Numbered from the stretch's first letter, positions 3,301 to 63,063 are shown. The stretch: DNA of 64,000 nt from Patescibacteria group bacterium (GCA_038064495.1 JBBTSZ010000002.1:480002-544001); one strand, 5' to 3'. The notes: generated by a model from the sequence alone, not told the origin. Program-made: numbers and translations.

Positions 3301-3416
3301 CACGCAGAAAGGGCGAGGGATACAAGGCGTGGGCAAACATATTTCTGGAGACGTATGTGCTATACGGCGGAAGAAATTGTTGGGACCCACAACAAAGTAG
3401 CTGCGACCTTTATGCG
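3301..3416 (+). repeat. Copy A of a 3-member structured intergenic element family
   Basis: Shares the core AAGGCGYGGG...GACGTATGTGCTATACG...GGGACCCRCAAC with copies at 32933 and 62943; helices are maintained by compensatory changes. Confidence 0.6.
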
Positions 3417-3990
3417 TGAAATCACGTTTGACATAGAGACAAGAAACCTAATCCCCGCCTTTGCGCGTGGGGACATGACTCGTTTGGACTTGGCCATCGT
3501 CGGCATCCACGATTCTGAAACTGATTTGTATACGAGCTATGCTCAAGAAGAACTCTCACAGCTCTGGCCGATTATTGAGAAAGCCGATGTCCTCATCGGC
3601 TTTAACTCGGATTCCTTTGATATTCCACTTTTGAATCATTATTACCCCGGCGACCTCACGAAGATTCGTTCACTTGATTTACTTTCTGAAGTGTACAAAT
3701 CACTTGGTCGTCGTATCCGCCTACAATCACTCGCCGAGGCAACACTCGGACACGGTAAATCTGCAGACGGCGTGAAAGCGGTAGAGTGGTGGCAACAGGG
3801 GCTCCACGACAAAGTACGCGAGTACTGTCTGCAAGACGTGAAAGTCACCCGTGAGCTCTACGACTACGCACGAAAGCACGGCAAGCTGAAATACAAAGAC
3901 TTGCGCCAAAACAAAGATATTAAAATTGATACGAGTGCCTGGGATGATGCGCACGAGTCTTCCGCCTTCACTCACACCTTAGGACTCTAG
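3412..3990 (+). CDS. RNase H-like 3'-5' exonuclease (DEDD/PolB-exo-like, YprB-type)
   Basis: FDIETRN...D...YCLQDV motifs. The start was chosen at the internal Met because the upstream part of the ORF overlaps repeat copy A. Confidence 0.5.
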   Translation: MREITFDIETRNLIPAFARGDMTRLDLAIVGIHDSETDLYTSYAQEELSQLWPIIEKADVLIGFNSDSFDIPLLNHYYPGDLTKIRSLDLLSEVYKSLGRRIRLQSLAEATLGHGKSADGVKAVEWWQQGLHDKVREYCLQDVKVTRELYDYARKHGKLKYKDLRQNKDIKIDTSAWDDAHESSAFTHTLGL

Positions 3991-4017
3991 TGAAACTGCG
4001 CATGCTATCCTTTTTAT

Positions 4018-4758
4018 ATGGATACGCCGCAATCTGAAGTGCCGCAGGCACCCCTACCAACACGTAAGGTACTAAAGCCTGCAGAGCTTCTCATTCCGAT
4101 TGCCATTTTGATTGCCGGTTTGTTAATTGCGTCTGCAGTCTACGTCGTTCGCATAAAACACCAGGTGACGCATGGAAGTGGTACGCCGGAGGCCGTCAGG
4201 CCTGTTTCGCCGAGTGATCACATCATTGGAAACCCAACGGCACCGATTGTCATTATTGAATACGCGGATATTGATAGTAGCTACTCAAAGAGTCTTCAAC
4301 TCACGATGGAACAGCTCATGACCGAGTACGCCGACGGTGGAAAAGTCGCCTGGGTCTTCCGTCACTTCCCGCTTTCACTTCAACATCCAAACGCGGGTCA
4401 GCACGCACTTGCTGCTGAGTGCGCCGCTTCGCTTTCCGTGCCCACTACATTCTTCCGCTTTATAGATGCCATGCAGGCAGCTGCACCAAACCAAAACCAG
4501 TACAATCCGGTTGGCTACCCAACACTTGTCGCACAGTTTGGTATTGATCAAACGGCCTTTAAGAAATGTATGACGGACGCAGCCTTTGAGAAGAAAATCC
4601 ACGACGACTATGACAACGCGCTTGCCTCCGGTGCTATCGGTTCTCCGTTTGTGGTGCTGATTACCCCTGACAATACGCCCGCTCCCATTAATGGCGCACT
4701 CCCCTATACCTCTATGAAGAAGGTTATCGAGGAGGCTATCAAAAAACTTCCGCAATAA
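4018..4758 (+). CDS. DsbA/BdbD-family thioredoxin-fold protein with N-terminal TM anchor; active-site CxxC replaced by SSYS
   Basis: VIIEYADIDSSYSKS aligns to the family's VEFSDFQCPYCKR; the FRHFPL...H motif and the cis-Pro loop region are conserved. Confidence 0.7.
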   Translation: MDTPQSEVPQAPLPTRKVLKPAELLIPIAILIAGLLIASAVYVVRIKHQVTHGSGTPEAVRPVSPSDHIIGNPTAPIVIIEYADIDSSYSKSLQLTMEQLMTEYADGGKVAWVFRHFPLSLQHPNAGQHALAAECAASLSVPTTFFRFIDAMQAAAPNQNQYNPVGYPTLVAQFGIDQTAFKKCMTDAAFEKKIHDDYDNALASGAIGSPFVVLITPDNTPAPINGALPYTSMKKVIEEAIKKLPQ

Positions 4759-4813
4759 TCTTGCTTTTTACTAGTGTTTGTGGTATTGTGATTTTAGGCA
4801 GAAAGGAGGTGCC

Positions 4814-5044
4814 ATGCTTACACGAACCGTTCTCCGTGAAGGCCGTAAGCGACGTCATATGACGAATCAACCGGCACGGGAGCAAATGGCTGCGATTCTG
4901 TCCGAGTATTATCCTGGTGATGATGTCTTGGAGAGTCTCCGCAGCCAGAATTCTCCTGAAGGAATGGTCAGAGTCCTTGGACTCATGAAAAGGTTCGAGC
5001 AATCTGAACTCCAGTGCAGACCCAAACACCGGGTCGTGCATTAA
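4814..5044 (+). CDS. Hypothetical small protein
   Basis: AGGAGG RBS 6 nt upstream of the ATG; 76 aa. Confidence 0.4.
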   Translation: MLTRTVLREGRKRRHMTNQPAREQMAAILSEYYPGDDVLESLRSQNSPEGMVRVLGLMKRFEQSELQCRPKHRVVH

Positions 5045-5049
5045 CAAAA

Positions 5050-5080
5050 CGGGCGCTCGCGATAATCGCGCGCGCCCACT
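5050..5080. terminator. Bidirectional intrinsic terminator
   Basis: gggcgctcgcgataatcgcgcgcgccc hairpin; a T-run follows on the minus strand. Confidence 0.5.
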
Positions 5081-5101
5081 TCATTATCTATCTACGATTC
5101 C

Positions 5102-5488
5102 TTACGCCGATTCGCGCTGTCCTTCCGTAATATCCATCACTTCCTTTTTGGAAGTTGCAGTTCCTATCACTTCTCCCGATTGATCACTGATGTGTACCAC
5201 GTTTTCGCTTCCAGGAACGCTTTGCATGCGCAAACCAAGTGCTTCAGCAAATCCAGACATATCCTCGTCACTCATAGCTTGCAGTGATTCGGTTGTGTAG
5301 GGAGTTCCAGCCCGCTCAGCCTTGAGCGCAATATGAAAAGCTGCTTGTTTAATGTCTTTATCAGTAAATGTTGTTCCCTCAGTGCTCGACTTCGATGCAA
5401 CCTCTTGCATTTTCGTCTGGAGGAGACCGAACGCATCAGGATCAGTATTTTGCAACTTCGGGCCCGTAAATTTCTCTATAAAACTCAT
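5102..5488 (-). CDS. Hypothetical protein
   Basis: 128-aa ORF immediately downstream of the helicase gene on the same strand. Confidence 0.4.
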   Translation of the reverse strand: MSFIEKFTGPKLQNTDPDAFGLLQTKMQEVASKSSTEGTTFTDKDIKQAAFHIALKAERAGTPYTTESLQAMSDEDMSGFAEALGLRMQSVPGSENVVHISDQSGEVIGTATSKKEVMDITEGQRESA

Positions 5489-5536
5489 GTCAGTGATGGT
5501 TAGTTGTTGTAGGAATATTCTACAACGAGCCTCATT

Positions 5537-8371
5537 CTAGTCAAACAGCGCAAGGAGGTCATCGTAGGCGTCACTGTCGTCTCGCTTTCGCTCCCCTTTT
5601 CGCCATGCCCCGCCCATAAGCTCACCTACAACCTCCTCAAGGGTAGTGAGCAGGTCTTTGCGCGACTCGTCGGTGAGCGGCACTAGGTAATTCGTCACGT
5701 CCTCAGGAGACACCTGGATAATGAGTGCCATGGTCGGGTGGTGGCCATTCTCACGAAGCAGCAAGTCATAGAAGGCAAGCTGGCGGGGATAGGCCTCGTC
5801 TTTTTTATCAATCTTGCTTGAGGTCTTGAAGTCTACAATGCACTCACCTCCTTTCTCCTTAAACACTGCATCAATCATCCCGTACAAAAGCACATCCACA
5901 CCCGAAAATAATTTCTTAACCGAGAATGCTTTTTCTATTGCAACGGTTTCTTCTTTCTTTCCTTCCCGTAGATAGGTCTCGAGGCGCGCACGGGAATTCT
6001 CCACCACACGCTCGTAGGCCGCGTTTCGCGGAAGTAGGGAGCGCTTCAGCGTTCCTTCAAGCACGCTGTATGCTTTGTCCTCACTTCCCGATTTAAGGTA
6101 CTCCGCAATGCCCGCATGCACTGCGGTGCCGATAGCGGTCGCGGGTGTTTCTGGCTCATGGAGCCGAAGTACACGGCGTGCGAAAAAGACTGGAGGTGAT
6201 TCAAGATATTCATTCAACGCTGATGGCGAGAGTCCTTCCTGCGTGAGGTAGGTACGCACCAGGTCAGTCACCACCTGTGCAGACGCTACATTGTGATGGA
6301 GGAGTGGAAGTGGGTCTGCTTCCCTAGTGACCGTGGTGAGACCTTCCGGAATGAGCGCCGAGGGCGCTGTTTCTCTACCATCACCATTTTCACTACTGTA
6401 CGAAAGAATGAGGTTGTCTTTTGCGCGCGTCATCGCGACATAGAAGAGCTTGGTCACGTCTTCAAGCGAACGGGACTGGTCCACCGGTGATGGAATCTTC
6501 GCAGACATACCACCCCTCTCCCAGGCGCGCGCCGTGAGTTCAACCATGAAGACGGTGTTGAACTCCATACCCTTCGCCTTGTGCGCAGTGATGACTGTGA
6601 CCATACCCTCTTTTTTTGTAATTGAGGTCTTCACGCTTTCAAGACCGTGCTCATGGGCTTTCGTGAAAGCCGAAACGACGTTTGCAAACGTGCGTCCCGG
6701 GTCACGCACCACGATTTCTTCAATGTGCATGAAAATACGTCGCATGAGTTGCACATCTTCAAGGTGCTCTGCGCGAGCGAGCATATACGCACGTGCGCCA
6801 GATTCGGTAATGGCACGCGACAGAAGCGGAAGCGGTGCCTCAGAAAGTGCGTCTTTTTGTAGCTTACTGAGAATCTTCGCAATGTCGCGGTACTCCGTGA
6901 TAAGCGTCGTAAAAAGCTCGCGGTCGCGGTTTTTGAGGAGGAGTCCCGCGCGCTCCGGAAGCGGCAGGTCCCACCAGGGGGCGAGCAGCGTCTCACGAAG
7001 GGCTGAGATATCAAGCGGGTCGGAAATGGTACGCATGAGCGCAAGAATAGAGCGCATCAGTGGTCGACTGGATAGTTTTACATCACCCGCGCGCAGTACC
7101 GGAATGCCTTTGCCTCTCAAATGCTCAGCGAAGAGGTCTGCGGTTGCGTTCCGGTTTGCGATAATCGCCACCTCTTCAGGTGCGACACCTTTGGCAAGAG
7201 TTTCTTCAACCATGACTGCGACCGCATCGCGCTCCGCGAGCGGATCTCCTGCAACGAGTAGTTCCATACGTGCACTGCCGGTTCGAGTACTTGTGAGTTC
7301 CTGATGTTTACCTGTTGCAGCAGGAACACTTTGTATGAGTGTGTGTGACGTATCAAGCAGACCTTGGAGCGCACGAAAGCTGTCCGTGAGGTAGACAAGT
7401 TCGGTTCGTGGATAGAGCTCGGTGAATCTCTTGAAGTGCGTAGAGTCTGCTCCCTGAAAGCGATAAATGGCTTGCTTTTCATCCCCCACCACAAAAAGGT
7501 TCGGGTGGTCATCAAGTGCAAACGTATCCAGAAGCGCGTGTTGGAGCTCGTTGGCATCCTGGTGCTCGTCAGCAAGAAGATACTGGTACTGCTCCCGCAC
7601 GCTCGCCATGAGGTCTGCGTCCGCTTTGAGCCCATCAACCGCAATGCGCAGCACATCAGCAAAATCATACACATCGTTCTTCTCTTTGAGTGCCTCGTAT
7701 GCGGAAATGAGCCTCGCGGCTTCCTCACCTTTTTCAAGGCGCTCTAGTTTCTTTTCACCTTCTGGTTTGAAGTCACCTTTCTTGCCGTACTTGCTGTCAC
7801 GCAGGTAGTAGAGCGACTCGTCCGCACGAATGCGCTTCGCTTCGCCTTCTAACCACACACGGTAGTCTGCTAGCGTAATGCGCTCGCGCACGAAGTCGTC
7901 ACGAAGTCGTGCGAGGTCGCGCAGATAAAAATAGGGTGACTTTGTGGTGCGGAGTGCTTGCAGGTCTTCCTGCTCAAGCACTTCTCGCCAGAGCAGTGTG
8001 GTCTCCACTTCCGCAGCAAGGCGCTTACCACGCGCTTCCGGGAAGGAGTCGCTATAGGTAGAAAGCAGGTGCTCGGCAAATCCGTGAAAAGTGGTGATGA
8101 AAACTTCCCGCGCGACAGCTTCACCTACGAGTTCCCCAAGGCGGCTGCGTACTGTGCGAGCCGCGGAATCCGTGAAGGTAAGGACGAGAATATTCCCCGG
8201 AGTTGCCTGCGTCTTCTGAAGAATGTTCGCAATGCGTAGCGTGAGAATGTGCGTCTTGCCGGTACCGGGTCCTGCTATGACGAGGACTGGCCCTTCTACC
8301 GTGTCCACCGCTTTCTTTTGGGCAGCGTTGAGTTCTCTGTATGCCTTGGTGAATGCGGTCGGGTCTGCCAT
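5537..8371 (-). CDS. UvrD/PcrA-family SF1 helicase with C-terminal RecB/Cas4-like PD-(D/E)xK nuclease domain
   Basis: Walker A GPGTGKTH at the N-terminus, UvrD helicase motifs, and a C-terminal ...CIVDFKTS... nuclease motif with Cys residues. Confidence 0.85.
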   Translation of the reverse strand: MADPTAFTKAYRELNAAQKKAVDTVEGPVLVIAGPGTGKTHILTLRIANILQKTQATPGNILVLTFTDSAARTVRSRLGELVGEAVAREVFITTFHGFAEHLLSTYSDSFPEARGKRLAAEVETTLLWREVLEQEDLQALRTTKSPYFYLRDLARLRDDFVRERITLADYRVWLEGEAKRIRADESLYYLRDSKYGKKGDFKPEGEKKLERLEKGEEAARLISAYEALKEKNDVYDFADVLRIAVDGLKADADLMASVREQYQYLLADEHQDANELQHALLDTFALDDHPNLFVVGDEKQAIYRFQGADSTHFKRFTELYPRTELVYLTDSFRALQGLLDTSHTLIQSVPAATGKHQELTSTRTGSARMELLVAGDPLAERDAVAVMVEETLAKGVAPEEVAIIANRNATADLFAEHLRGKGIPVLRAGDVKLSSRPLMRSILALMRTISDPLDISALRETLLAPWWDLPLPERAGLLLKNRDRELFTTLITEYRDIAKILSKLQKDALSEAPLPLLSRAITESGARAYMLARAEHLEDVQLMRRIFMHIEEIVVRDPGRTFANVVSAFTKAHEHGLESVKTSITKKEGMVTVITAHKAKGMEFNTVFMVELTARAWERGGMSAKIPSPVDQSRSLEDVTKLFYVAMTRAKDNLILSYSSENGDGRETAPSALIPEGLTTVTREADPLPLLHHNVASAQVVTDLVRTYLTQEGLSPSALNEYLESPPVFFARRVLRLHEPETPATAIGTAVHAGIAEYLKSGSEDKAYSVLEGTLKRSLLPRNAAYERVVENSRARLETYLREGKKEETVAIEKAFSVKKLFSGVDVLLYGMIDAVFKEKGGECIVDFKTSSKIDKKDEAYPRQLAFYDLLLRENGHHPTMALIIQVSPEDVTNYLVPLTDESRKDLLTTLEEVVGELMGGAWRKGERKRDDSDAYDDLLALFD

Positions 8372-19607: not shown

Positions 19608-20111
19608 CTATAGCAATTTGTCCTGAAAACTGCCGATTGCATCAAGCAGTTTGTTGGTTCGATTTTCGTTCAGGGCCATAATGTTTTTCCCTTCTTCGAT
19701 AACCTCTCTCTTAATGCATCCATCCATGAAGTCAGTGAAGAGTCTGAAGTCTTGTTCTTTAATGAATCCAGGAAATTGCTCAAATAAAGATCTGATATTG
19801 TCGCGATGCTCTATCCACTTAATGGTAAGAGGTGACATATGCTTTTGCATTAGATCAATCCTTACTTCAACATTCCTCCATTCTTCGATATCCTTTGAAA
19901 CTTCTTCTCGATTTTCTACTAACAACTTCATCACTAGGAGATGGAACTTGAGTGGGCCATAGAGCTTTTCATAACGCATATCCTCTCTGGTGCGATCTGA
20001 TAGGCGCCAGCTAATAACTCCAGAGAATAATGCAGACAAAAGACTTGAGCCAAGAATGATAGTGGCGATTGCCGTCCAAGGAATACCCTGAAGCAGAGTT
20101 GTGGTCTCCAT
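19608..20111 (-). CDS. Hypothetical N-terminally anchored protein
   Basis: Low-GC ORF of 167 aa with an N-terminal TM helix. Confidence 0.45.
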   Translation of the reverse strand: METTTLLQGIPWTAIATIILGSSLLSALFSGVISWRLSDRTREDMRYEKLYGPLKFHLLVMKLLVENREEVSKDIEEWRNVEVRIDLMQKHMSPLTIKWIEHRDNIRSLFEQFPGFIKEQDFRLFTDFMDGCIKREVIEEGKNIMALNENRTNKLLDAIGSFQDKLL

Positions 20112-20123
20112 TGAAATCCTTTA

Positions 20124-21515
20124 TTAATAACTCTTCAAACGTCGGGACTTATCATGAGTTCGAATCTTCTCAAGCGCCTTTGCCTCGATTTGGCGAATAC
20201 GTTCCCTCGTCACCCCAAACTCTTTCCCTACCTCCTCAAGCGTATGGTACACACCGTCCAAAAGGCCGTGGCGCATTTCTAGAATCTTACGCTCCTTTGG
20301 TGAAAGGTCATCAAGAATGTCCCGAACCTGCTCACCAAGAATGCGCTCTGAAGACTCCTGCACTGGCGACGGAATTTTGTCGTCTGCAATAAAGTCACCA
20401 AGCGTGGACTTCTCATCATCATCACTACCGATAGGGTTCTCAAGCGAGAGTGTATCCTGATTGATTTTCTCAATCTGGTAAATCTTATCTACTTCAACAC
20501 CCATTTCAACCGCAATCTCCTCTGGCTGAGGATCACGTCCAAGGGCCTGAGCAAGACGACGACTCACCTGCTTATATTTTGCAATGGTTTCCACCATGTG
20601 CACGGGGATACGAATGGTGCGGGACTGGTCTGCGAGCGCACGAGTGATGGCCTGGCGAATCCACCAGGTCGCATAGGTTGAGAACTTGTACCCTTTCTTC
20701 CAGTCGAACTTGTCCACGGCCTTGAAGAGACCGAGATTTCCTTCCTGAATAAGGTCCAAAAGCGTAAGGTCCGGAGAGCGACCCACATACTTCTTTGCGA
20801 TAGATACCACGAGGCGGAGGTTGGAACGGGCAAGAATGTTGCGTGCTTCATCGTCACCAGCATCAATGCGCTTTGCAAGCTCGCGCTCTTCTGATGCAGT
20901 TAGGAGTGGATACTGACCAATTTCACGAAGATAAATCTGAATGGAGTCGTAGCTGGAAGAATCACGACCCTTGATGTTACGGGTTGCTAGGTACTGGTCA
21001 GCATTGTCTTCAAGCATGCCGCCCTCAAGGATGTCGATGCCGGCAACCGTAAAGCGTTCATAGAGTTCGTCCAAAAACTGCACGTCGTCTTCAACGTGTG
21101 GGAACTCTTTCAAAATCTCGCTGTAGGTAACGTAGCCACGTGTCTTACCCTTTTGGATAAGAAGCTCTGCTTTGTCAGCCTTGCCTGCAGCTGCCTTTGC
21201 TTTTGCTCCTGAGACAGCGGCACGAACAACGGCCTTTGCGCGAGTAGAGACGGACGCCTTTTTAACCGCCTTCTTCGCAGTCTTCTTCGCAACCTTCTTC
21301 GCAACCTTCTTCACCTTCTTTGCTTTCTTGGCCGCCTTCTTCGGTGTCTTCTTAACCGTTTTCTTTACTGCCTTTTTCGCTTTCTTAGGCGCACTCTTCT
21401 TCACCGCTTTCTTCGGCGCTGTTTTCTTCTTCGCACTCTTACCGGCGGTCTTCTTCCCCCTCGTCAGGGACCCAGATGCTTTGACCACCTTTTTAGCCTT
21501 CTTTTTTGTTGCCAT
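20124..21515 (-). CDS. rpoD: RNA polymerase sigma-70 factor RpoD/SigA with lysine/alanine-rich histone-H1-like N-terminal extension
   Basis: Regions 1.2-4 are conserved (IAKKY...[19 protein letters not shown]). The first ~110 aa are KKA/AKK repeats where the acidic region 1.1 would normally be. Confidence 0.9.
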
Positions 21516-32909: not shown

Positions 32910-32932
32910 AGTAAAAGTGTAACTTGGTCCTT

Positions 32933-33047
32933 GTGTGCGAAAGAGAGGTTCCAGATGCTAGGCGCGGGTTGGCTCCGAGTGCAGACGTATGTGCTATACG
33001 ACGGAACGAGGAGACGGGACCCGCAACAACGCAAATGGGGCCTATCC
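32933..33047 (+). repeat. Copy B of the structured intergenic element family
   Basis: TAGGCGCGGG...GACGTATGTGCTATACGACGG...GGGACCCGCAACAACG. It sits between the KH-protein gene and trmD and is antisense to that operon. Confidence 0.6.
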
Positions 33048-33057
33048 TTTCGTGCAC

Positions 33058-34574: not shown

Positions 34575-34905
34575 ACCGCCCCATCATATGGGGCGGAAAG
34601 TGGTGATTCAGGCAACCTACGGCGACTCCTTTTTCCCGCAGGATTCAGAGTCTTGTCTCCAGCACGGGTGGTGTTTCATTGGCGACTTCCGTCTCCCACC
34701 TAGTATGCGCACAATTGAATGCGCAGAGGTACGCGATGCCAGATAAGCTAACGATCCGCCCCAGAGGAATCGAACCTCCGGACATTCCGACACCATCGGA
34801 ACATCGGCTGTTAAGGAGTCGAACCCTCTTTACCCTCACCAACAAGGAACAGCAGGACCTCAAGCGTTTGCCTGAATCACCGACCGCAAGTCTACCCTGA
34901 CCGCG
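34575..34905 (-). ncRNA. tRNA-like / tmRNA-like structured RNA region (identity unresolved) with its own terminator
   Basis: On the minus strand there are two GGTTCGAnTCC T-loop-like motifs, a GGU-anticodon-like hairpin, the 3' acceptor-like GGGGCGG-A, and a 14-bp long-range helix (GGTGATTCAGGCAA/TTGCCTGAATCACC). A short frame GCC AAT GAA... (ANETPPVLETRL*) is present. A terminator lies at 34566-34597. Confidence 0.3.
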
Positions 34906-44049: not shown

Positions 44050-44949
44050 TTATTTTCTTGATTTGTCCAAAAGCTTCTGCACCGCTGCCGTCACAATCGG
44101 CAACATATCGTCATAGAAGTTGAGGTCGAGAATGTCTGGGAGGCGGAACCATTTTGCGTCGTCTAACCCCCCACTCTTTTTGAGCTCAAGTGTCTCAAAC
44201 GGTGAATGCACGAGGAAGAAGTACACGTGCTTACGCACCTTTCCTTTTTCAGGGTGACTCGCGACATACTCGTTTTCTCCTACCTGACTTTCGACTCGCA
44301 CATCAGTGAGACCCAGTTCTTCAGCCACTACGCGCTTTACGCCCACTTCAGGAGTTGCATCATTTTCAATATGTCCCTTGGACAAGGTCCAGCGTCCAAA
44401 CACGTCATGCACGAGCGCAAGATAGTACTGTCCGTCATGTTCGGCGTAGACGATGGCACCACCGAGCTTCTCAAGTGGCAAGTCTTCGCGCTTCACACGC
44501 TCTTTCTTTCCGGTTTCTTCTTTACCTGGCTCACCAAGCTCTTTATAGACGGCACCGAGCACGCCGTTTACAAAACGACCACTGGAATCTCCGCCGAACA
44601 CTTTGGCAAGTTCAATTGCTTCGTTAATAGCTACCTTTGCTGGCACCTGTGCGCGATCGGCAAAGAGAAGTTCGTAGAGACCGATGCGGAGAATATTTCT
44701 ATCGACGGGTGCAATCTTATCGAGTGGCCAATCGGGTGCTGCTTTTTCAATCACGAGGTCGAGGTCAGGCTTTTTTGCTAGTACCCCTGCGAGGAGGGCT
44801 TCCATGAATGGCTTATCGGTATCGTCTCCACCGAATTCTTCGACGTTACGCTTCAACATTTCGTCGGCACCTTTTTCGTCGGCACCAGTAGAATCCCACT
44901 CAAAAAGAGTTTGCAGAACTACCGAACGGGCTAGGTGTCTATTCGCCAT
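44050..44949 (-). CDS. nusB: NusB antitermination factor fused to a C-terminal NUDIX hydrolase domain
   Basis: NusB core LRIGLYEL...KVAINEAIELAKVFGG...FVNGVL; C-terminal Nudix box GHIENDATPEVGVKRVVAEELGL. Confidence 0.85.
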   Translation of the reverse strand: MANRHLARSVVLQTLFEWDSTGADEKGADEMLKRNVEEFGGDDTDKPFMEALLAGVLAKKPDLDLVIEKAAPDWPLDKIAPVDRNILRIGLYELLFADRAQVPAKVAINEAIELAKVFGGDSSGRFVNGVLGAVYKELGEPGKEETGKKERVKREDLPLEKLGGAIVYAEHDGQYYLALVHDVFGRWTLSKGHIENDATPEVGVKRVVAEELGLTDVRVESQVGENEYVASHPEKGKVRKHVYFFLVHSPFETLELKKSGGLDDAKWFRLPDILDLNFYDDMLPIVTAAVQKLLDKSRK

Positions 44950-45038: not shown

Positions 45039-45497
45039 TTATCCTAACTTGAGTGCTTCTCTTAGAGTCTCACGAAAACCCGGAAGCAGTTTAACTTTAT
45101 ATGCTTCGCTGGGTTTTAACCACATATACTTTTGTGCTTCCCAATCTAAAATTATTTTATCAGTGTTCACCTTGACGAGTACCGGATGAACAATCCAAGT
45201 CTTCTTATACTTCGGTGCTTCTTGGAGCAAAATCCTTCCAAGTTTGATTGAGTTGATATTTCTTCTTGAAAACCCAACTTCCTCACGGAGCTCTTCGTAT
45301 ACTTTTTGATCAAGACTTTTATGGTCGTCAAGAAATCCTGATATTCCATTCCAGTATCCTGGATAGAGTCGCATGTTCTTACTCCTCTGTACTAAAAGAA
45401 TCTTTCCATTAAAAAACAGGACGCAGTTCAGTACTGGTGCCCAGCGAACATTTGTAAAATCGACCTGTCCCGGTTTTGGAATAAATCTCTTTTCCAT
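45039..45497 (-). CDS. NUDIX hydrolase
   Basis: Nudix box-like GISGFLDD...YEELREEVG; low GC. Confidence 0.65.
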   Translation of the reverse strand: MEKRFIPKPGQVDFTNVRWAPVLNCVLFFNGKILLVQRSKNMRLYPGYWNGISGFLDDHKSLDQKVYEELREEVGFSRRNINSIKLGRILLQEAPKYKKTWIVHPVLVKVNTDKIILDWEAQKYMWLKPSEAYKVKLLPGFRETLREALKLG

Positions 45498-45657
45498 AGA
45501 ATAAGTTTACCAAAGTCCTCATTAGATTCTTCAGAGTCGCTAATAATGATTTTAGATACGAGGCATGGGGAAAGCGGAACTGGAGGCGTATGTGGTATAC
45601 GACGAAGGGCCCGCTGGGGGGCCCATAACACTTTAGATGAAATTATTTTAGCGAACT

Positions 45658-46002
45658 CTAGACGCCGCCGCCGAATCCAGAACGACTCTTCGCCTTCCCT
45701 GTCACCATGCGTCCAAGAAGTCCTTGGGACTTTGTTTCGCGTTCCTCACCAATTGGACTGGTGTTGGTTCCCTTCTCTACCTTCTCGGCTTTCGCCTTTT
45801 CCTTGTCCTTCTTCTCTACCTTCTTTATCTCCTTCTTGGAAACAATCTGCTTGCCGCGGTACATACCGGTGGATTCATCAAGCGTGTGTGGAAGACGTAG
45901 TGCGCCTGATTCTTTATCGGTCACCAAATTAGTCCCCGAAAGCGCATGATGGCTTCGGCGGTTCTTGGTGTGCGAACTCGTGTGGCGCATTCGTACTGAC
46001 AT
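45658..46002 (-). CDS. rpmF: 50S ribosomal protein bL32 with Lys-rich C-terminal extension
   Basis: [27 protein letters not shown]...YRGKQIV matches the bL32 N-terminal pattern. Confidence 0.8.
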
Positions 46003-46454
46003 AGTCTTGCCACCCTACCATAAAACGCTCCAGAAAGTCTATATACTGCGTTACGGGTCCCAATTTCCTCGCTACGCCCTATAGAAATACGTCTCCGCTC
46101 CTCATTCGCCCGTGCCTTGTTTCTATACTTCCTGGAGCGTTTTATCACGGCTAAAAAGTCCCTATATAGGGTATTTTTAAGCACCTACGGGCTCTTGTGG
46201 TTTTTCCTTCGCGTGTCACCATAGAGAAGGAAGCTACGAGCGGGACCTCGTGCAAGCATCCAGAGCCCAAAACTGTTACTCACACTGGGAAAGACCCATG
46301 AAAACGTACACACCACGGTCTCTACGGAATGCTCATTTCAGGGAGGAGTCACGAAAACGATTCATTCGTCCTTATGATTCTGGGTAGCGGATATCCGCCT
46401 TCCAAACCCAACCCAGGGACCACGAAGTCTCTGCTCACTTTTGCACGCTTCTGC

Positions 46455-46492
46455 GTGTAAAACATCGGGGGTCGCGCTTGCGCGACCCCCGA
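46455..46492 (-). terminator. Intrinsic terminator for rnhB
   Basis: cgggggtcgcgcttgcgcgacccccg followed by a T-rich tract on the minus strand. Confidence 0.65.
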
Positions 46493-46500
46493 ACCATTTT

Positions 46501-51976: not shown

Positions 51977-53719
51977 ATGGCCTCACTCGAGGAGAAACGT
52001 CATACGCTCGCCCACCTGCTCGCCGCAGCGGTGCTGGAGCGCTACCCGAACGCGAAAACAACGATTGGCCCAGCCGTTGATAACGGGTTTTACTACGACT
52101 TTGATTTCTCCGGTGGCGAAGCTCCAAAAGAAGCTGACTTGGCTTCCCTTGAAGAAGTGATGCGTGAACTTCTTTCCTCCTGGAATGAAATGACCGGCAC
52201 TGAGGTGTCTGAGAAAGATGCGCGAGACCGTTTTAATGCAAACGAATACAAGCGAGAGATTATTGATGGCATCGTAGCCGCGAATGAGACTATTACGCTC
52301 TATACCGCTGGCAACTTCACGGACCTGTGTCGTGGTGGACACGCAGAGAATCCCAATCACGAAGTGAAGGCAGACTCCTTCACGCTTGACCGTATCGCGG
52401 GTGCGTATTGGCGTGGCGACGAGACGAAACCAATGCTCACGCGCATCTACGGACTCGCCTTTGATACGAAAGCGGAACTGGAAGCCTATAAAGAACAGCA
52501 GGAAGAAGCGAAGAAGCGTGACCACAAGAAACTTGGCCGTGAACTTGATCTCTTTGTGTTCTCAGAACTCGTAGGTCCAGGACTTCCCCTCTTCACCCCA
52601 AAAGGAACAATGGTAAGAGACCTGCTCGATGAATTTGTATGGGAACTCCGTAAGCCGTATGGTTATGAAAAAGTAGAGATTCCACACATCACGAAAAAAG
52701 ACCTGTATGAGACGTCAGGTCACTGGGACAAATTTAAAGACGAACTGTTCCGTATCACAACTCGTGAGGGACACGAATTTGCGATGAAGCCGATGAACTG
52801 TCCGCACCATACACAAATCTACGCTCGTAAGCAGTGGAGCTACCGTGAACTTCCCCAGCGTTACAGCAATACGACGACGTGTTATCGGGATGAACAATCA
52901 GGTGAACTCTCCGGCCTATCTCGTGTTCGGGCATTCTCTCAAGACGACGCGCACGTGTTCTGTCGCGTAGCGGATGTAAAAACAGAATTCCTTAAGGTCT
53001 GGGATATTATTCATGCGTTTTATCCAACGTTTGGATTTGACCTACAAGTTCGTTTTTCTACCCATGACCCCGAGCATCCAGAAAACTATCTTGGTGATCC
53101 ATCGGTATGGAATACAGCTGAAGCAGTGCTCGCAGAAGTTCTTGAAGAGAAACAGATTGAAGCAATTCCGGGTCTTGGTGAAGCGGCTTTTTACGGTCCG
53201 AAGCTTGATTTTATTGCCAAGGATTCACTCGGCCGAAGCTGGCAGGTAGCAACCATTCAGCTTGATATGAATCAGCCTGAGCGCTTTGACCTCACCTGTA
53301 TTAATGAGGAAGGTAAGAAGGAACGTATCGTGATGATTCACGCAGCCATTATGGGTTCTATCGAACGCTTCCTTTCCATCCTTATTGAACACACTGCAGG
53401 AAATCTCCCCGTATGGCTCTCACCGGTCCAAGTGCGCGTGCTTCCCGTTTCAGATAAACAAGCGGAGTATGCGGCTTCGGTAGCTACTTCCTTACAGACT
53501 TCAGGTGTGCGTGCTGATGCAGATATGTCGAACGAATCTCTTGGTAAGAAAATCCGTGCTGCGAAAACAGAGAAGATTCCCTACCTACTCGTTGTAGGTG
53601 ACACGGAGATAGCTGACAGTACCGTCACCGTTGAAATGCGTTCTGGAGAAAAGATGGGTGCCCTTTCGCTTCAAGACTTCGCTGACCGTATCACTAAGGA
53701 GATTCAGGAGCGCGCGTAA
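51977..53719 (+). CDS. thrS: Threonyl-tRNA synthetase lacking the N-terminal TGS domain
   Basis: Editing-domain HxxxH (RHTLAHLLAAAV), class II motifs and an anticodon-binding domain. Confidence 0.93.
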   Translation: MASLEEKRHTLAHLLAAAVLERYPNAKTTIGPAVDNGFYYDFDFSGGEAPKEADLASLEEVMRELLSSWNEMTGTEVSEKDARDRFNANEYKREIIDGIVAANETITLYTAGNFTDLCRGGHAENPNHEVKADSFTLDRIAGAYWRGDETKPMLTRIYGLAFDTKAELEAYKEQQEEAKKRDHKKLGRELDLFVFSELVGPGLPLFTPKGTMVRDLLDEFVWELRKPYGYEKVEIPHITKKDLYETSGHWDKFKDELFRITTREGHEFAMKPMNCPHHTQIYARKQWSYRELPQRYSNTTTCYRDEQSGELSGLSRVRAFSQDDAHVFCRVADVKTEFLKVWDIIHAFYPTFGFDLQVRFSTHDPEHPENYLGDPSVWNTAEAVLAEVLEEKQIEAIPGLGEAAFYGPKLDFIAKDSLGRSWQVATIQLDMNQPERFDLTCINEEGKKERIVMIHAAIMGSIERFLSILIEHTAGNLPVWLSPVQVRVLPVSDKQAEYAASVATSLQTSGVRADADMSNESLGKKIRAAKTEKIPYLLVVGDTEIADSTVTVEMRSGEKMGALSLQDFADRITKEIQERA

Positions 53720-53732
53720 CTCTACAAATAGC

Positions 53733-53766
53733 AAAGGCCCGGATGCATGCATCCGGGCCTTTTTGA
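53733..53766. terminator. Bidirectional terminator
   Basis: aggcccggatgcatgcatccgggcct followed by ttttg. Confidence 0.7.
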
Positions 53767-53780
53767 ATCGGCAAAAGAGC

Positions 53781-58080: not shown

Positions 58081-59199
58081 GTGGTAAACAGGTGCTATAT
58101 GGAAACGACTACAATTCAGTCCAAGAAGGGCCCAATGAACGGTCTTGCCGTCGTAGGGTTCGTAGCCCTTATTATCATTGGTATTTTGACGGCTATTTAC
58201 GCCGCAAGCTTTATTCCTAAGGCTCTTTCGCGATTCTCATCTGCGAACGTATACCTTTCAAATCTTTCTGCAACGGATGGAACGGACACGACAGCGACTA
58301 CGCCAACAACTCCTACCGTCGCGACGACGCCAGAACCAACGGTACCGGTCTCCCCTACGCAAGCGGCGCCAGCAGCACCCGTTGTGACTACGCCTACCTA
58401 CGTTACTCCTGTCTACACAGCACCTACACCTACCGTTGTACGTGTACCCGCTCCACAAACGTATTATTCAGGTTTGCCTGACCTTTCGGTCACCATCACG
58501 GACGTTGGATATCTTCGTACCAACAGCATTGATTCGTTTGTATCAGCCAACTCAGTTCCTCGTGGCTATCAGGGAGCTGTTCGCTACACAGTTCGCAACG
58601 AAGGCACCAATGTGTCTGGAAACTACCGTGTTGAGATTCGCGTCTCTACGAACGGCGGAAACGATACCGACAGCGTGAGTGGATCAAATCTCGTACCAAA
58701 CCGTAGCGTCACCGGAACCGGTGTGTTTGATGCGAACAGTTCTGGTACAGCAACCATTCGCATTACCGTTGATGCTCGTGACGATGTAGATGAGTCTCGC
58801 GAAAACAACAATGACGATTCTGACAGCATTCGTTTGAACGGTTCCGATAACTCTTCAAACGATAGTTACGACAGTAATGGTCGTTATTGCCCATACGGAA
58901 CCTATCATGCGAACAATCGCTACTACTGCAACACGTCAGACTCTGGCACTGATTCTTATGATAGTAATGGTACCTACTGCCGATACGGTACGTACTACTC
59001 AAATGGCCGCTACTATTGTGACTCTTCAAATACCACGAATAATTCCTCGTACGACAGTAATGGAAATTTCTGCTCCTACGGAACGTACTACTCGGGTAGT
59101 CGCTACTATTGCAACACCTCTGGCAGTCAGTGGTACACACGAGACCAAAACTGTACGTATGGAAACTACTACAACGACGGAACAAGTTACTGCTACTAA
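58081..59199 (+). CDS. Membrane-anchored surface protein with a Thr/Pro-rich stalk and four Cys/Tyr-rich repeats
   Basis: TM helix; TTATTPTTPTVATTPEP linker; four repeats of SYDSNGxYCxYGTYYSNGRYYCNTS. Confidence 0.55.
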   Translation: MVNRCYMETTTIQSKKGPMNGLAVVGFVALIIIGILTAIYAASFIPKALSRFSSANVYLSNLSATDGTDTTATTPTTPTVATTPEPTVPVSPTQAAPAAPVVTTPTYVTPVYTAPTPTVVRVPAPQTYYSGLPDLSVTITDVGYLRTNSIDSFVSANSVPRGYQGAVRYTVRNEGTNVSGNYRVEIRVSTNGGNDTDSVSGSNLVPNRSVTGTGVFDANSSGTATIRITVDARDDVDESRENNNDDSDSIRLNGSDNSSNDSYDSNGRYCPYGTYHANNRYYCNTSDSGTDSYDSNGTYCRYGTYYSNGRYYCDSSNTTNNSSYDSNGNFCSYGTYYSGSRYYCNTSGSQWYTRDQNCTYGNYYNDGTSYCY

Positions 59200-59261
59200 A
59201 CTTCCTCAACAAGAAAACCGCTCGGCATATGCCGAGCGGTTTTCTTGTTGAGAAGTGCGCT

Positions 59262-61337
59262 CTACACGTCTAGGTTTGCAAGCTTTGCATTGGACTGAAT
59301 AAATGACTTTCGACTTGGCACATCAGTACCCATGAGGATGTCAAAAATGCGATCCGCTTCAGACGCATCGTCCACTGTCACCCGCTTCAGGACACGACGT
59401 TCCGGGTCCATGGTGGTTTCCCACAGCTCAGACGCATTCATTTCTCCAAGACCTTTGTAGCGCTGTATGGTGAACTTCGTTGCCTTCTTTGCGATTGCCG
59501 CTACTTCTTCTTCCTCGGTTGGTTCAGGTCCTTCCTCATCAAGCACGGCTTCAATCACTTCCGCGTCTTTGCCGACAATCTTCTCCTTTTCTTCGTCAGA
59601 GTACGCGTAGTACACCTCCTTACCGCGCTTTATTTTGTAGAGTGGTGGCTGTGCAATATAGATGAATCCCCCATCAATCACCGCGCGGAAGTGGCGGTAG
59701 AACAACGTCAAAATAAGGGTACGAATGTGAGCGCCGTCCACATCAGCATCCGTCGCAATGATGACCTTGTGGTAGCGAAGTTTGGAAAGGTCAAAGATGT
59801 CGCCAATCGCGGTACCAAGTGCAATCACGAGATTCTTAATCTGCTCACTGGCGAGCATCTTATCTAGGCGTGCGCGTTCAATATTCAAAATCTTTCCGCG
59901 AAGCGGGAGGATGGCCTGGGTACGGCGATCACGTCCGGTTTTTGCGGTACCACCGGCGGAGTCTCCCTCCACAATAAAGAGTTCTGACTCCTCAGCTGAT
60001 TTACTCTGACAATCAGCAAGCTTACCGGGAAGCGTCATGCCCTCAAGAGCGCCCTTACGAAGCACCGAGTCTTTGGCGGCCTTTGCAGCCTTACGCGCTT
60101 TAAGGGCGAGCAGTACCTTGTTCACAATGGCACGCCCGTCGTCAGGATTCTCCTCAAGGAAGCTTGCAAGCGCAGAACCAAACACCGTCGCAACCGCGCC
60201 CTGTGCCTCCACGGAACCGAGCTTGCCTTTGGTTTGTCCTTCAAACTGAATCTCCGGCATTTTTACGGAAATAACCGCAGTGAGTCCCTCAAGCACATCG
60301 TCACCCGTAAAGTTTTCTTCACTCTCTTTCAAAATACCAGCAGAGCGTCCGTAGGTATTTAGGGTTCGAGTAAGTGCCGTCTTAAAACCGGTGACGTGGG
60401 TTCCCTGCTCCGGGTTGTAGATATTGTTTGCAAACGCCATTAAGCGCGGCGTGATGTCGTCGGTGTATTGAAAGGCGACCTCAACGGCAACGTCGTTCTC
60501 GGTCTGGTCAACATAGAAAATATTTTTGTGTGCAACGGTCTGATGTTTGTTATAGAACCCAATGAGTGAACGGAGACCTCCTTCAAAGAAAAAGGACATG
60601 GACGGCATTTCAAGAGCGAGTTCGCGCACATACCACACGCTGTCGGTATCAAGTTTGCCTGCGGTGCGCGCGTCTATAACACAAATACGGGTGCCCTTCA
60701 CGAGGTAGGCCTGCTGACGAAGGTGCGCCACAATCTTCTCCCAATTCCAACTGATGCCTTCTTTGAAGATGGTCGCGTCTGGCTTGAACATCACAACAGA
60801 ACCTTGATGAGAAGTCTTTCCGACTACCTTGACCTTTGCCTTTGCCTTTCCTATCTCGTACTCCTGCATGTGAATGCTGCCGTCTTTGTGGACGAGCACT
60901 TTGGTGTGTTCAGAAAGTGCGTTTACCACGGATGCTCCCACACCATGGAGACCTCCGGAAACTTTGTAGCCTGAGTCCTCACCTCCGAACTTACCGCCGG
61001 CGTGAAGCGTGGTCATGATGGTCTCCAGTGCTGAGACTTTGGTCTTTGGATGAATACCGACTGGAATACCGCGACCGTTATCTACGACGCGCACGTAGCC
61101 GTCTGGGAGAAGTACGACTTCAATATCGTTCGCAAAACCACCCATCGCCTCGTCGCGTGAGTTATCAAAAATCTCCCAAATGAGGTGGTGCAGACCGTCG
61201 GGGCCGGTGGTCCCGATGTACATGCCCGGACGCTTACGGACTGGTTCAAGACCCTCAAGAACGGTAATACTTGAGGCATCGTAATCGCCGCTCTTGGAAG
61301 CGGCTTTTTTAGCAGTTTTAACCTCCTTTTTGGCCAT
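59262..61337 (-). CDS. gyrB: Type IIA topoisomerase B subunit (DNA gyrase B / ParE)
   Basis: GHKL ATPase motifs plus a TOPRIM EGDSAGG and PLRGKILN. Confidence 0.9.
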   Translation of the reverse strand: MAKKEVKTAKKAASKSGDYDASSITVLEGLEPVRKRPGMYIGTTGPDGLHHLIWEIFDNSRDEAMGGFANDIEVVLLPDGYVRVVDNGRGIPVGIHPKTKVSALETIMTTLHAGGKFGGEDSGYKVSGGLHGVGASVVNALSEHTKVLVHKDGSIHMQEYEIGKAKAKVKVVGKTSHQGSVVMFKPDATIFKEGISWNWEKIVAHLRQQAYLVKGTRICVIDARTAGKLDTDSVWYVRELALEMPSMSFFFEGGLRSLIGFYNKHQTVAHKNIFYVDQTENDVAVEVAFQYTDDITPRLMAFANNIYNPEQGTHVTGFKTALTRTLNTYGRSAGILKESEENFTGDDVLEGLTAVISVKMPEIQFEGQTKGKLGSVEAQGAVATVFGSALASFLEENPDDGRAIVNKVLLALKARKAAKAAKDSVLRKGALEGMTLPGKLADCQSKSAEESELFIVEGDSAGGTAKTGRDRRTQAILPLRGKILNIERARLDKMLASEQIKNLVIALGTAIGDIFDLSKLRYHKVIIATDADVDGAHIRTLILTLFYRHFRAVIDGGFIYIAQPPLYKIKRGKEVYYAYSDEEKEKIVGKDAEVIEAVLDEEGPEPTEEEEVAAIAKKATKFTIQRYKGLGEMNASELWETTMDPERRVLKRVTVDDASEADRIFDILMGTDVPSRKSFIQSNAKLANLDV

Positions 61338-61726
61338 ATTTCGTAGTTAGAGTATAGCATATTTACTACCCCACGTCTTCCTTCTTTTTGTATGAAAAGG
61401 GCCCCACGAATGCTCGTGAGGCCCTGCTGAAGAAGGATTCGAATCCTGGCTTACGCGTACTGGGAATGCTCCCGATGCTGGCTCGGATCGCCTCCCCTCT
61501 GGATTCGCCGTCGTTCCTTCTTGGCCTGGATTTGGTTGCTCGACTTGCCAGGGGCCTTGCTGGTTGTTTGGCCTTTGTTGACCTTATGAGTCAAGTGACA
61601 CCTCCTTATATCGTGAGCGATAGTGCCCACAATGTACGAGACTACGGCATGCAATGATTCTGGTCAATTGGGGTGCGAACTACGTTTGCTTGAATAAGCA
61701 CCCATTATTAACTACACTCTCTACAC

Positions 61727-62881
61727 ATGGACATATCAATTGATAAAGGAGACGAGCTACGTCTACGCAGCGAACTTGAGGGACGTACCGACTTTGAGGC
61801 AGCACGCATCAGGCGCTACCTCGCTATGCCGGACCTGTCCCGTACGCCGGGCAGTCCGCTTGCTGAGATTGTGGATCGTGTTAAAGCCGTTCCAGAGCTT
61901 GCTGGATTCGATGTCATTGAAATACCGGAAATTGTTCCGGCTGACGTTTCATTTGATTTGTTTGACTTCCCCGCCGACCACCCTGCACGCAGTCACTCTG
62001 ACACCTATTATGTTGACGATACCAACATTCTTCGCACACACGATACGGTCTTTTGGTACTATTACCTCAATCACCCTACGATTAAGGAGCGCATCGCGAA
62101 AGGAGAATCTATGGGTGCGCTCTGCTACGGCAAGGTGTATCGAAAAGACGAGATAGATAGTCGCCATATGAATATCTTTCATCAGCTTGGTGGGTGGTAC
62201 ATAACACCAGCCAGCCAGCCTATCGTTGCAGATGACCTTAAAAAAGTCCTCGGCGATATTGTGCACTCGGTCTTTGGTCCTGAGATGATCTACCGAGTAA
62301 ACGATGACACGTTCCCATATACCGACCCGTCCTTTGAGGTAGAAGTGAGCGTCAAAGGTACCGCTGCAGAAGGCCCTGCACGTGGTGACTGGCTTGAGGT
62401 TCTTGGTAGTGGTATGCCGAAGGCCTCCGTTATGGAAGCGCTCGGTGGTAGTGGCTACCATGGGTGGGCATTTGGGTTTGGTATTGAACGACTCGCCATC
62501 ATCTCCATGGCACTCCCCGACATTCGCCTTCTCTGGTCTGACGATGAGCGCATCAAGCGACAACTGGTACTCGGTCAAGCGTTTACACAAGTGAGCAAAT
62601 ATCCGCCGATTACTCGAGACATTTCTTTTATCGTTACGGATGATTTTATTCCCAACGATTACTTTGAACTCGTGCGCGATATCGCGGGCGACCTTGTTGA
62701 GGAAGTTGCACTCATTGACCGCTACGAGAATGTAGAGAAATTCGGTGCTGGAAAGGTCAGCTATGCCTACCGCATTACCTATCGCTCTTTAAATCGTACA
62801 CTCACGAGCGAAGAGATAGATATCCTCCACAAGAAGCTTGAAACCGCGACCGCTGAGACCTACAGCGCCACAGTTCGTTAA
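61727..62881 (+). CDS. pheS: Phenylalanyl-tRNA synthetase, monomeric (mitochondrial-like) type: PheS catalytic core fused to C-terminal FDX-ACB anticodon-binding domain
   Basis: HPARSHSDTYY, GKVYRKD, FHQLGG and FGIERLAI class II motifs; the C-terminus SKYPPITRDISFIV...IDRYEN...GKVSYAYRITYRSLNRTLTSEEID matches the PheT FDX-ACB domain. Confidence 0.8.
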   Translation: MDISIDKGDELRLRSELEGRTDFEAARIRRYLAMPDLSRTPGSPLAEIVDRVKAVPELAGFDVIEIPEIVPADVSFDLFDFPADHPARSHSDTYYVDDTNILRTHDTVFWYYYLNHPTIKERIAKGESMGALCYGKVYRKDEIDSRHMNIFHQLGGWYITPASQPIVADDLKKVLGDIVHSVFGPEMIYRVNDDTFPYTDPSFEVEVSVKGTAAEGPARGDWLEVLGSGMPKASVMEALGGSGYHGWAFGFGIERLAIISMALPDIRLLWSDDERIKRQLVLGQAFTQVSKYPPITRDISFIVTDDFIPNDYFELVRDIAGDLVEEVALIDRYENVEKFGAGKVSYAYRITYRSLNRTLTSEEIDILHKKLETATAETYSATVR

Positions 62882-62942
62882 AACCATGCGTCCCCTCCTT
62901 TCAGCTTTTAAAATAGGCTTTTTTTGCTAGACTCTACCCATA

Positions 62943-63063
62943 GGGCACCGGGAAAAGCGTCATAGGCAAGGCGCGGGAAGACGACGAGCGCAGGCGTATC
63001 ATGTATACGACGTAGCGTGGAGTCGGGACCCGCAACGAGGCATATGGTGCTTTTCGCAAGCCC
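62943..63063 (+). repeat. Copy C of the structured intergenic element family
   Basis: AAGGCGCGGG...GGCGTATCATGTATACGACG...GGGACCCGCAACGAGG; the outer helix is GGAAAAGCG/GCTTTTCGC. Confidence 0.6.

Follow-up and report, generated by a model that had tools for sequence, protein, structure and literature searches.

A strand-specific palindromic intergenic repeat family in Patescibacteria, possibly an orientation-dependent hairpin or terminator module

Bacteria of the candidate phyla radiation (CPR), Parcubacteria among them, have tiny genomes and are uncultivated, and their non-coding elements are almost unstudied. A stretch of 64,000 nt from one such genome (Patescibacteria group bacterium, GCA_038064495.1, JBBTSZ010000002.1:480002-544001; hereafter the window, with positions counted from its first letter) raises the question of what an intergenic element that recurs along it, with changes that keep base pairing rather than sequence, might be. 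A preliminary description, made from the sequence alone, had recognized three copies of about 115–120 nt, all in one orientation and about 30 kb apart, and had proposed that they carry a selected secondary structure. We find six full-length copies in the window and a family of 83 copies in related genomes that share a covarying, strand-specific fold. Our tentative reading is that this is an undescribed, lineage-specific palindromic intergenic repeat of approximately 131 bp found in some groundwater Paceibacteria/Parcubacteria, that it belongs to the class of the ERIC, Correia, RUP, and REP elements, and that it acts as an orientation-dependent hairpin or terminator module.

Fold, covariation and strand of the repeat

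We scanned the 64 kb of the window with a covariance model (R1) with filters off and recovered four full-length copies on the plus strand and two on the minus strand. In 486 kb of collected sequence from approximately 35 genomes of Paceibacteria, Wolfebacteria, and Kaiserbacteria, R1 identified 83 copies, 64 of which were derived from a pattern search and 19 of which were found by the model alone. An alignment of 63 sequences (A4) spans 133 columns and is nearly gap-free, and in it the forward strand folds into a single 131-nt rod with successive helices P0-P1-P2-P3-P4 that are interrupted by conserved purine-rich loops, mostly tandem G.A mismatches. Across these 63 copies, standard pairs occupy 83.8% of the cells compared with 66.4% in column shuffles, and the covariation score is 0.505 compared with 0.196 in shuffles, none of 500 of which reached the observed value. 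In a register-shift control, sliding the 3' partner by one to three columns reduced the paired cells to 35–40%. The outer helix P0 taken alone is paired in 65.7% of cells (45.3% in shuffles) with a covariation score of 0.56 (0.235 in shuffles). This signal is among the clearest for any bacterial repeat and, together with 56 compensatory double changes between syntenic copies, bears out the earlier view that the element is a selected single-strand secondary structure rather than a decaying repeat or a coding region; the strand chosen in the preliminary description is the one that folds.

Several lines of evidence distinguish the forward strand from its complement. On the forward strand there are 223 G.U pairs versus 84 A.C mismatches, and at pair 35-97 we counted 33 GC, 17 AU, 13 GU, and no AC combinations. 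The ratio of G.U to A.C is 4.4:1 in copies that are antisense to their genes and 3.1:1 in sense copies, and because sense copies share the forward bias we ruled out selection to weaken a hairpin in the mRNA as its source. The forward strand is the more stable one in all 83 copies, including 10 of 10 sense-oriented copies, with a mean of -55.8 kcal/mol versus -42.9 kcal/mol for the complement. Among ten syntenic pairs of copies, 31 single differences change a Watson–Crick pair to G.U and seven change one to A.C. Because both kinds of difference arise from the same base changes on the same strand, mutation bias cannot explain the 31:7 asymmetry, which can be explained by selection on the forward-strand fold. 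On this strand the unpaired bases that are conserved are purines, which would suit non-canonical pairing, and the C.A mismatches of the reverse-complement hairpin cluster near the base of P1 beside the U-tract. Standard models of the REP/ERIC type would not lead one to expect selection on the folding of a strand that usually is not the mRNA.

The anatomy of the rod, in columns of A4 (5' strand / 3' strand), and two examples of its core in copy B of the window are as follows:

Columns 2-12 / 120-130: outer helix P0, 11 bp
Columns 15-24 / 109-118: helix P1, outer four to five pairs almost always A (5') / U (3')
Columns 25-26 / 107-108: tandem G.A/A.G, replaced by Watson–Crick pairs in some copies
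Columns 27-29 / 104-106: three more pairs
Loop J1, conserved: R30 A31 opposite R101 A102 M103; G32-C100; G33 C34 opposite A98 A99
Columns 35-39 / 93-97: helix P2
Loop J2: A40 A41 opposite G89 G90 G91 A92
Columns 42-49 / 81-88: helix P3, variable
Loop J3: symmetric and purine-rich
Helix P4: closes a variable 5-nt loop
Window 32962-32970, plus strand: 5' core of copy B, AGGCGCGGG, the 5' strands of loop J1 and helix P2
Window 33016-33027, plus strand: 3' core of copy B, GGGACCCGCAAC, comprising the J2 3' strand GGGA, the P2 3' strand, and the J1 AAC

Columns 31-39 are conserved at 90–100%, and covariation within P2 is seen at 35-97 and 36-96. Conserved tracts border P1, A4-5 on the 5' side of the rod and U4-5 on its 3' side, with pairs 15-118 to 17-116 being A-U in 42–51 of the 63 copies and U-A in four or fewer, and P0 lies beyond both tracts. 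The invariance of CGTAT/ATACG and of GGGRCCCRYAAC in the 64 pattern-derived copies was imposed by the search pattern; in the 19 copies found by the model alone the same segments covary (CGTAC/GTACG, CTTAC/GTAAG, GCGAGC/GCTCGC), and conservation is highest in the J1 sequences GAUGCGAGGCG and GCAACGAAGCAGAUG. Internal loops are thus more conserved than stems, and inspection of these loops by eye revealed no canonical signature of a K-turn, loop E, or attC core motif. In one copy (locus L039, 1271-1457, minus strand) an apical insertion of approximately 56 nt is accommodated with the outer helices and the core kept, and from this copy the tip of the rod tolerates large insertions. We also considered a conserved peptide and rejected it because the open reading frame (ORF) through copy B is not kept in other copies; one-base indels and variable stems rule out a conserved ORF in the family.

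Copies, placement and turnover

The copies in the window, with their R1 scores, are listed here:

Copy A, 3295-3426, plus strand: 102.9 bits; sense orientation
Copy B, 32932-33060, plus strand: 103.7 bits; antisense
Copy C, 62939-63069, plus strand: 95.8 bits; sense orientation
Copy D, 45531-45663, plus strand: 89.5 bits; antisense; first found by a simple motif search
Copy E, 46017-46146, minus strand: 73.1 bits; sense orientation; apical hairpin degenerate
Copy F, 986-1116, minus strand: 48 bits, e value 2.5e-11; divergent

Copies A, B, and C (96–104 bits, e values 1e-25 to 1e-27) are those named in the preliminary description; they are real and lie where it had placed them, each lengthened slightly by the covariance model. 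We recovered all of the motifs it had named, that is AAGGCGYGGG, CGTAT-N5-ATACG, GGGACCCRCAAC, and a variable inner helix, as well as the compensatory change GCGYGGG/CCCRC between copies. Copies D, E, and F had been missed and, with six copies present, the regular spacing of approximately 30 kb is an artefact. The uniform orientation that had been reported does not hold, given that two of the six copies are on the minus strand, and the earlier length was too short, because the outer helix P0 and the A- and T-tracts extend the element to approximately 131 nt. Relative to the genes, three copies in the window are antisense and three are sense, and the four best copies are all on the plus strand.

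Copy A has the HisRS gene (2000-3280) upstream, and the ATG (3412) of a gene for a DEDD/RNase H-like exonuclease lies within the 3' strand of its P0. Copy B is sited between the genes for KhpA (33058-33369, minus strand) and TrmD (32217-32909, minus strand) with the TAG stop of KhpA within the P0 3' strand, and it has syntenic counterparts in the loci L005, L063, and L083; that it is antisense to an rpsP-KH-trmD operon, as had been stated, was confirmed by Pfam matches to S16, KhpA, and TrmD. Copy C is downstream of a single-chain PheRS-like gene (61727-62881, plus strand), adjoins the start of a GT2 glycosyltransferase gene (ATG 63071), and has a syntenic counterpart in L007. Copy D, in which helix P2 is AUGGG/CCCAU, lies between the L32 gene rpmF (45658-46002, minus strand), whose TAG stop is in P0, and a NUDIX gene (45039-45497, minus strand). 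Copy E ends 15 nt before the rpmF start; E (upstream, sense) and D (downstream, antisense) therefore bracket rpmF as an inverted pair (45531-46146). Copy F is located between the convergent genes for MAPEG (plus strand, 491-988) and GFA (minus strand, 1112-1474) and its 3' end overlaps the TAG stop of the convergent plus-strand gene. These neighbours are functionally unrelated, and the remainder of the window encodes core machinery.

Every copy in the family lies between genes and fills the gap between them. A long opposite-strand ORF terminates within -21 to +5 nt of the element's 3' end in 71 of the 83 copies, and its stop codon falls in the P0 3' strand, often within CTCTAG; TAG accounts for 25 of 49 stops at element ends versus 124 of 348 elsewhere, a modest enrichment. 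The neighbour on the 5' side, too, is usually encoded opposite to the element, with a modal gap of 9 nt to its ATG, and at least 14 copies have a canonical bidirectional terminator 0–25 nt upstream of the 5' end. Among the copies between co-directional genes, 36 are antisense and four are sense. A start codon lies at -25 to +16 of the 3' end in about ten sense-oriented copies, A, C, and E among them.

To determine the distribution of the family, we searched one genome per GTDB species with a degenerate pattern comprising the apical hairpin and the 3' core. The 59 matching stretches, many of them in the same few genomes in several cases, all come from CPR bacteria that are labelled Parcubacteria, Paceibacteria, Wolfebacteria, Kaiserbacteria, Nomurabacteria, and Minisyncoccia, with some assemblies labelled Saccharibacteria. 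The density in the genome of the window is approximately one copy per 10 kb, which extrapolates from the window to roughly 90 copies in a genome of approximately 1 Mb. Two loci are far denser than this average, L051 with three copies on one strand inside 4 kb (2572-6444) and L029 with four copies inside 7.4 kb (305-7651). The Rfam 15 covariance models gave no match at gathering thresholds across the window and, at e values up to 10, nothing relevant for the highest-scoring copy, in L041, or for copies A, D, and E, in agreement with the earlier suspicion that no known RNA family matches. The literature that we searched contains no description of the element in CPR bacteria. An origin from phages or viruses was rejected because a pattern scan of IMG/VR and a blastn search of GenBank phages were both empty. 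The family would occupy approximately 1% of such a genome and has no Rfam entry; it is worth one, as well as a look in strand-specific metatranscriptomes, and the covariance model is an annotation tool that would prevent ORF miscalls and offers a marker of transcription-unit boundaries.

Occupancy varies between genomes. Loci L003 and L019, whose flanks are 75–80% identical, each hold copies that are absent from the other, L011 is filled where L056 is empty, and at one empty site the stop and start codons nearly abut (TGATATG). Most close relatives lack the element, and only four copies occur in 309 kb around TrmD orthologues versus six in the 64-kb window. Helix P0 resembles a terminal inverted repeat (TIR), and about a third to a half of the copies end in TA-GAG...CTC-TA(G). 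The preliminary description had allowed for a repeat like the miniature inverted-repeat transposable elements (MITEs), and that possibility is realized in part, in that occupancy is variable, distribution is patchy, and the outer stem is TIR-like; these properties describe a structured intergenic repeat family better than a classical stand-alone RNA gene. As in bacterial MITEs by the criteria of Delihas 2008 (PMC2229807), the element is small (<200 bp), non-coding, and multi-copy, its ends pair by way of P0 into one long stem-loop in a whole-element fold, and orthologous sites are found both filled and empty.

Copies that are retained show signs of constraint. Ten syntenic pairs differ by the 56 compensatory double changes mentioned earlier, 31 wobble-type changes, and 69 disruptive changes, and in the four closest pairs the identity of the element (0.77–0.83) equals that of the flanking coding DNA. 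The compensatory changes and the flank-like identity indicate that retained copies are under purifying selection for the fold at their own loci. Mean pairwise identity in the family is 55%, the best identity within the same genome is typically 0.52–0.80, and for only six of 63 copies is the nearest neighbour in the same genome; usually it is the syntenic copy of another genome. Judged by this divergence, the retained copies are old, a signal against recent selfish spread. An exact-protein look-up for strain variation returned only the same population and no polymorphism; it placed the window in an assembly from Hainich groundwater (ENA ERZ1292624 / GCA_964357455.1).

Terminators, known repeats and rival readings

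The positions taken by the element are also those of terminators. Two canonical bidirectional terminators of the window (53717-53777 and 59193-59265), both between convergent genes, consist of an outer stem, an A-tract, a GC hairpin, and a T-tract; they match R1 weakly (e value approximately 0.01–0.03), and their outer stem extends beyond the A- and T-tracts as it does in the repeat. We compared the junction upstream of trmD in 80 loci from metagenomes that encode TrmD orthologues with 63–89% amino-acid identity (309 kb in total) and observed three states. The stop and start overlap (TAATG, ATGA) in one state, and in another a canonical terminator is followed by the ATG about 10 nt further; in L069, where KhpA is kept upstream, this terminator consists of an outer stem, A4, a 20-bp hairpin, and T4. 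In the third state, in L063 and L083, the junction holds the element itself, matching copy B and L005. The element shares the slot and the outer layout of terminator hairpins, and its own addition is the conserved strand-specific core. A U4-5 tract follows P1 on both strands, and the stem of approximately 96 nt carries internal loops. Bidirectional intrinsic terminators are thus alike in having an A-tract, a hairpin, and a T-tract and in filling the gap that follows a stop codon before the next gene or that separates convergent genes, but they have a short GC stem in place of a hairpin of approximately 96 nt with conserved non-canonical loops; the element, moreover, is strand-asymmetric and often lies beside a separate canonical terminator.

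In relatives without the element (L069 at approximately 920-990 and many other loci), terminator-like hairpins lie only about 9–12 nt before the next ATG. This leaves no room for a standard promoter, so such hairpins would often be read through or overlap leaderless promoters. Genes for TrmD and its orthologues have a -10-like hexamer (TACACT, TACAAT, TATACT) that ends 6–7 nt before the ATG and lack a Shine-Dalgarno sequence, a pattern suggestive of leaderless transcription in these bacteria; elsewhere, for example at 20111-20124 of the window, the Shine-Dalgarno sequence in use is a normal AAGGA. The -10-like hexamers are at these sites:

Window, 32910-32935, minus strand: upstream of trmD
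L063, approximately 2225-2246: upstream of the trmD orthologue
L083, approximately 412-433: upstream of the trmD orthologue
L069, approximately 970-993: upstream of the trmD orthologue

The closest parallels among known repeats are palindromic elements of other bacteria. ERIC (IRU) is a 127-bp bacterial MITE, an imperfect palindrome whose 5' and 3' ends pair to give one long stem-loop (PMC2229807). The element described here is like ERIC in its length, in its strictly intergenic location within or at the ends of transcription units, in its conservation across species with both filled and empty sites, and in the orientation-dependent effect on neighbouring mRNA that is a feature of ERIC and that we propose for the element (PMC2229807). 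It is unlike ERIC in that there is no sequence similarity, its host phylum is CPR, its loops are more conserved than its stems, copies in the same genome are only about 55% identical, and it is strongly strand-specific, with approximately 90% of copies between co-directional genes in antisense orientation; its termini are TA in about a third to a half of copies, and a target-site duplication is not definable at 75–80% identity. RNase III can process the long hairpins formed by transcripts of the Correia/NEMIS, RUP, and Rickettsia palindromic elements (PMC2229807). These are likewise non-coding palindromes of 100–155 bp with TIRs, present in many copies at gene boundaries in small or streamlined genomes (PMC2229807), but our element has no recognized IHF site or outward promoter, its copies are ancient with none seen inside coding sequence, and its parent insertion sequence is not known.

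REP/BIME elements, which are mobilized by RAYT, are high-copy extragenic palindromes just past stop codons and before terminators that form single-strand hairpins and are kept at orthologous sites, as is the case here. A REP, however, is about 35 nt long, has a GTAG-type motif, and is usually clustered, whereas here one rod of 131 nt with a complex core makes up the whole element, and a RAYT gene was not seen in the 64-kb window. Integron attC sites are imperfect palindromes of 57–141 bp whose structure is conserved above sequence, are located right after an ORF and often overlap its stop, and are active as the folded bottom strand, the complement of the mRNA, with conserved unpaired bases. 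In these respects they resemble the element; in contrast to them, its stem base is the variable P0 with A/T tracts, its invariant AAC is in an internal loop, there is no RYYYAAC/GTTRRRY core, no cassette array and, in the window, no integrase, and its flanks are scattered housekeeping genes.

How the tentatively preferred hairpin or terminator module might work can be outlined from these observations. The family may have originated as a MITE-like element that lodges in terminator and stop-codon positions and is occasionally still spreading, and its active form would be the forward-strand fold. As RNA, the hairpin and U-tract would make a strong, possibly protein-recognized, terminator or 3'-end structure; the conserved polarity of the A- and U-tracts and the shared terminator slot suggest that hairpin and U-tract are part of the function. 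In sense orientation the fold would cut off downstream operon genes, and we propose that this polarity is why the sense orientation is rare (about one in ten between co-directional genes). In antisense orientation the operon transcript would bear the reverse-complement hairpin, weaker by approximately 13 kcal/mol, and would read through, and the strong fold would stop transcription that enters a gene from its 3' end.

A number of results weigh against this proposal. With respect to mobility, a clean target-site duplication could not be defined because the filled/empty pairs are only 75–80% identical, near-identical copies, the usual mark of recent transposition, were not seen, and the 64-kb window encodes no transposase or reverse transcriptase, so that the near-identical copies and the parent insertion sequence or transposase of a typical MITE were not found, the latter within the window. 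With respect to termination, positional profiles, hexamer counts, and a sigma-70 scan revealed no convincing forward-strand promoter upstream, and a scan with the intrinsic-terminator consensus did not call the element. Forward-strand RNA is expected to be scarce where a terminator lies just upstream of the 5' end, and yet the at least 14 copies with such a terminator stay intact at 83–120 bits. The conserved loops J1–J3 are unaccounted for by a plain terminator role, and the 3:3 split in gene-relative orientation in the window together with the placement of the best four copies on the plus strand would fit a replication-related rule equally well.

A different reading, which we consider somewhat unlikely, is that the element is not a domesticated MITE but a CPR-specific class of structured nucleic acid with about 100 copies per genome, in which the G.A-rich rod of the antisense strand recruits a dedicated protein that marks or insulates the ends of transcription units. 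The rod might then be RNA from antisense or post-termination transcription or single-stranded DNA, and, if true, this would be a means of end-marking in a genome with minimal regulatory machinery. We think it improbable that the copies are stand-alone small RNA genes, each producing from the forward strand, by its own transcription, a rod RNA of approximately 130 nt whose loops bind a common protein. Antisense siting would keep such a gene out of operon transcripts, the forward strand is selected in sense and antisense contexts alike, the conserved loops and variable stems recall tRNA-like gene families, and syntenic copies are retained over long divergence with compensatory changes; the A-tract, hairpin, and U-tract could be the terminator of the RNA itself, and TAnnnT hexamers that start 10–11 nt before the element are modestly enriched (11 of 83 copies). 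Against such genes, no conserved promoter was found at any fixed distance, and an ATG approximately 9 nt from the 5' end or an abutting terminator leaves no room for one, P0 pairs past the U-tract so that the folded strand outruns the putative terminator, a patchy presence in close relatives, where sites are gained and lost, would be uncommon for an essential RNA, and about 90 genes for one RNA in a genome of approximately 1 Mb, a number extrapolated from the window, would be extravagant.

That no promoter was found would fit an element that acts as DNA, with the forward strand as a single-stranded hairpin that is a substrate for recombination or transposition or a replication-related signal on one template strand, comparable to attC bottom strands, to REP cut by RAYT transposases, or to the ends of IS200/IS605; we regard this as having little probability, on a par with the small RNA genes. 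Usually it is the template strand of the upstream gene that folds, and the element overlaps the stop codon of that gene as attC sites do, sites are gained and lost with a patchy distribution, the outer stem is TIR-like and often reads TA-GAG...CTC-TA, and the four best window copies share one DNA strand irrespective of how the genes are oriented. DNA, too, stably accommodates G.T wobbles and tandem G.A pairs. On the other hand, orientation had no clear link to GC skew (37 negative and 26 positive in 8-kb loci that are too short for a firm test), neighbouring copies in one locus were co-oriented in only 14 cases versus nine, the attC core RYYYAAC/GTTRRRY is absent from the stem base, no integrase or Y1 transposase is encoded in the window, same-genome copies are too divergent for recent transposition, and purifying selection at single loci is unexpected for a purely selfish DNA site. 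Moreover, if genes are co-oriented with replication, the folding strand would be the template of the leading strand and as such would rarely be single-stranded. An ordinary cis-acting mRNA element in the sense transcript, be it a riboswitch, a leader, or a REP-like stabilizer in the 3' untranslated region, is very improbable, and its riboswitch or leader version is essentially excluded by the unrelated neighbouring genes and the mostly antisense orientation (36 versus four). Copies A, C, and E and approximately seven others are in sense orientation directly before a start codon, the reverse-complement hairpin at approximately -43 kcal/mol could still protect 3' ends, and RNase III and RNase R are encoded in the window; but no function is shared by the genes on either side, copies between co-directional genes are antisense in about 90% of cases, and the G.U:A.C ratio of 4.4:1 in antisense copies means that the form borne by the mRNA is not the conserved one.

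Other features of the window

Several further observations concern the window outside the repeat. ARAGORN called a 98-nt 'tRNA-Stop' with anticodon UUA at 34755-34852 (minus strand) that contains two T-arm-like GGTTCGA(C/T)TCC motifs and overlaps mechanical ORFs; Rfam gave no match there, the call is unrelated to the repeat, and it may be a split tRNA, a tRNA-like element, or simply a miscall. Approximately 350 nt (46147-46500, minus strand), bounded by copy E and the RNase HII terminator (46465-46492), contain no convincing ORF, have no Rfam match, and have a folding z-score of only -1.27; a small hairpin, CCCTATATAGGG, followed by T5 is located directly before copy E. Among the proteins, S16 (33433-33969, minus strand) is 178 aa with a long extension, and L32 (45658-46002, minus strand) has a lysine-rich C-terminal extension of approximately 60 aa. 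The product of 44050-44949 (minus strand) appears by eye to be a NusB-like N-terminus fused to a NUDIX-like C-terminus. The 384-aa protein encoded at 61727-62881 (plus strand), upstream of copy C, has both a class II PheRS catalytic core and an FDX-ACB anticodon-binding domain, a single-chain arrangement that is mitochondrial-like and unlike the usual bacterial alpha/beta pair.

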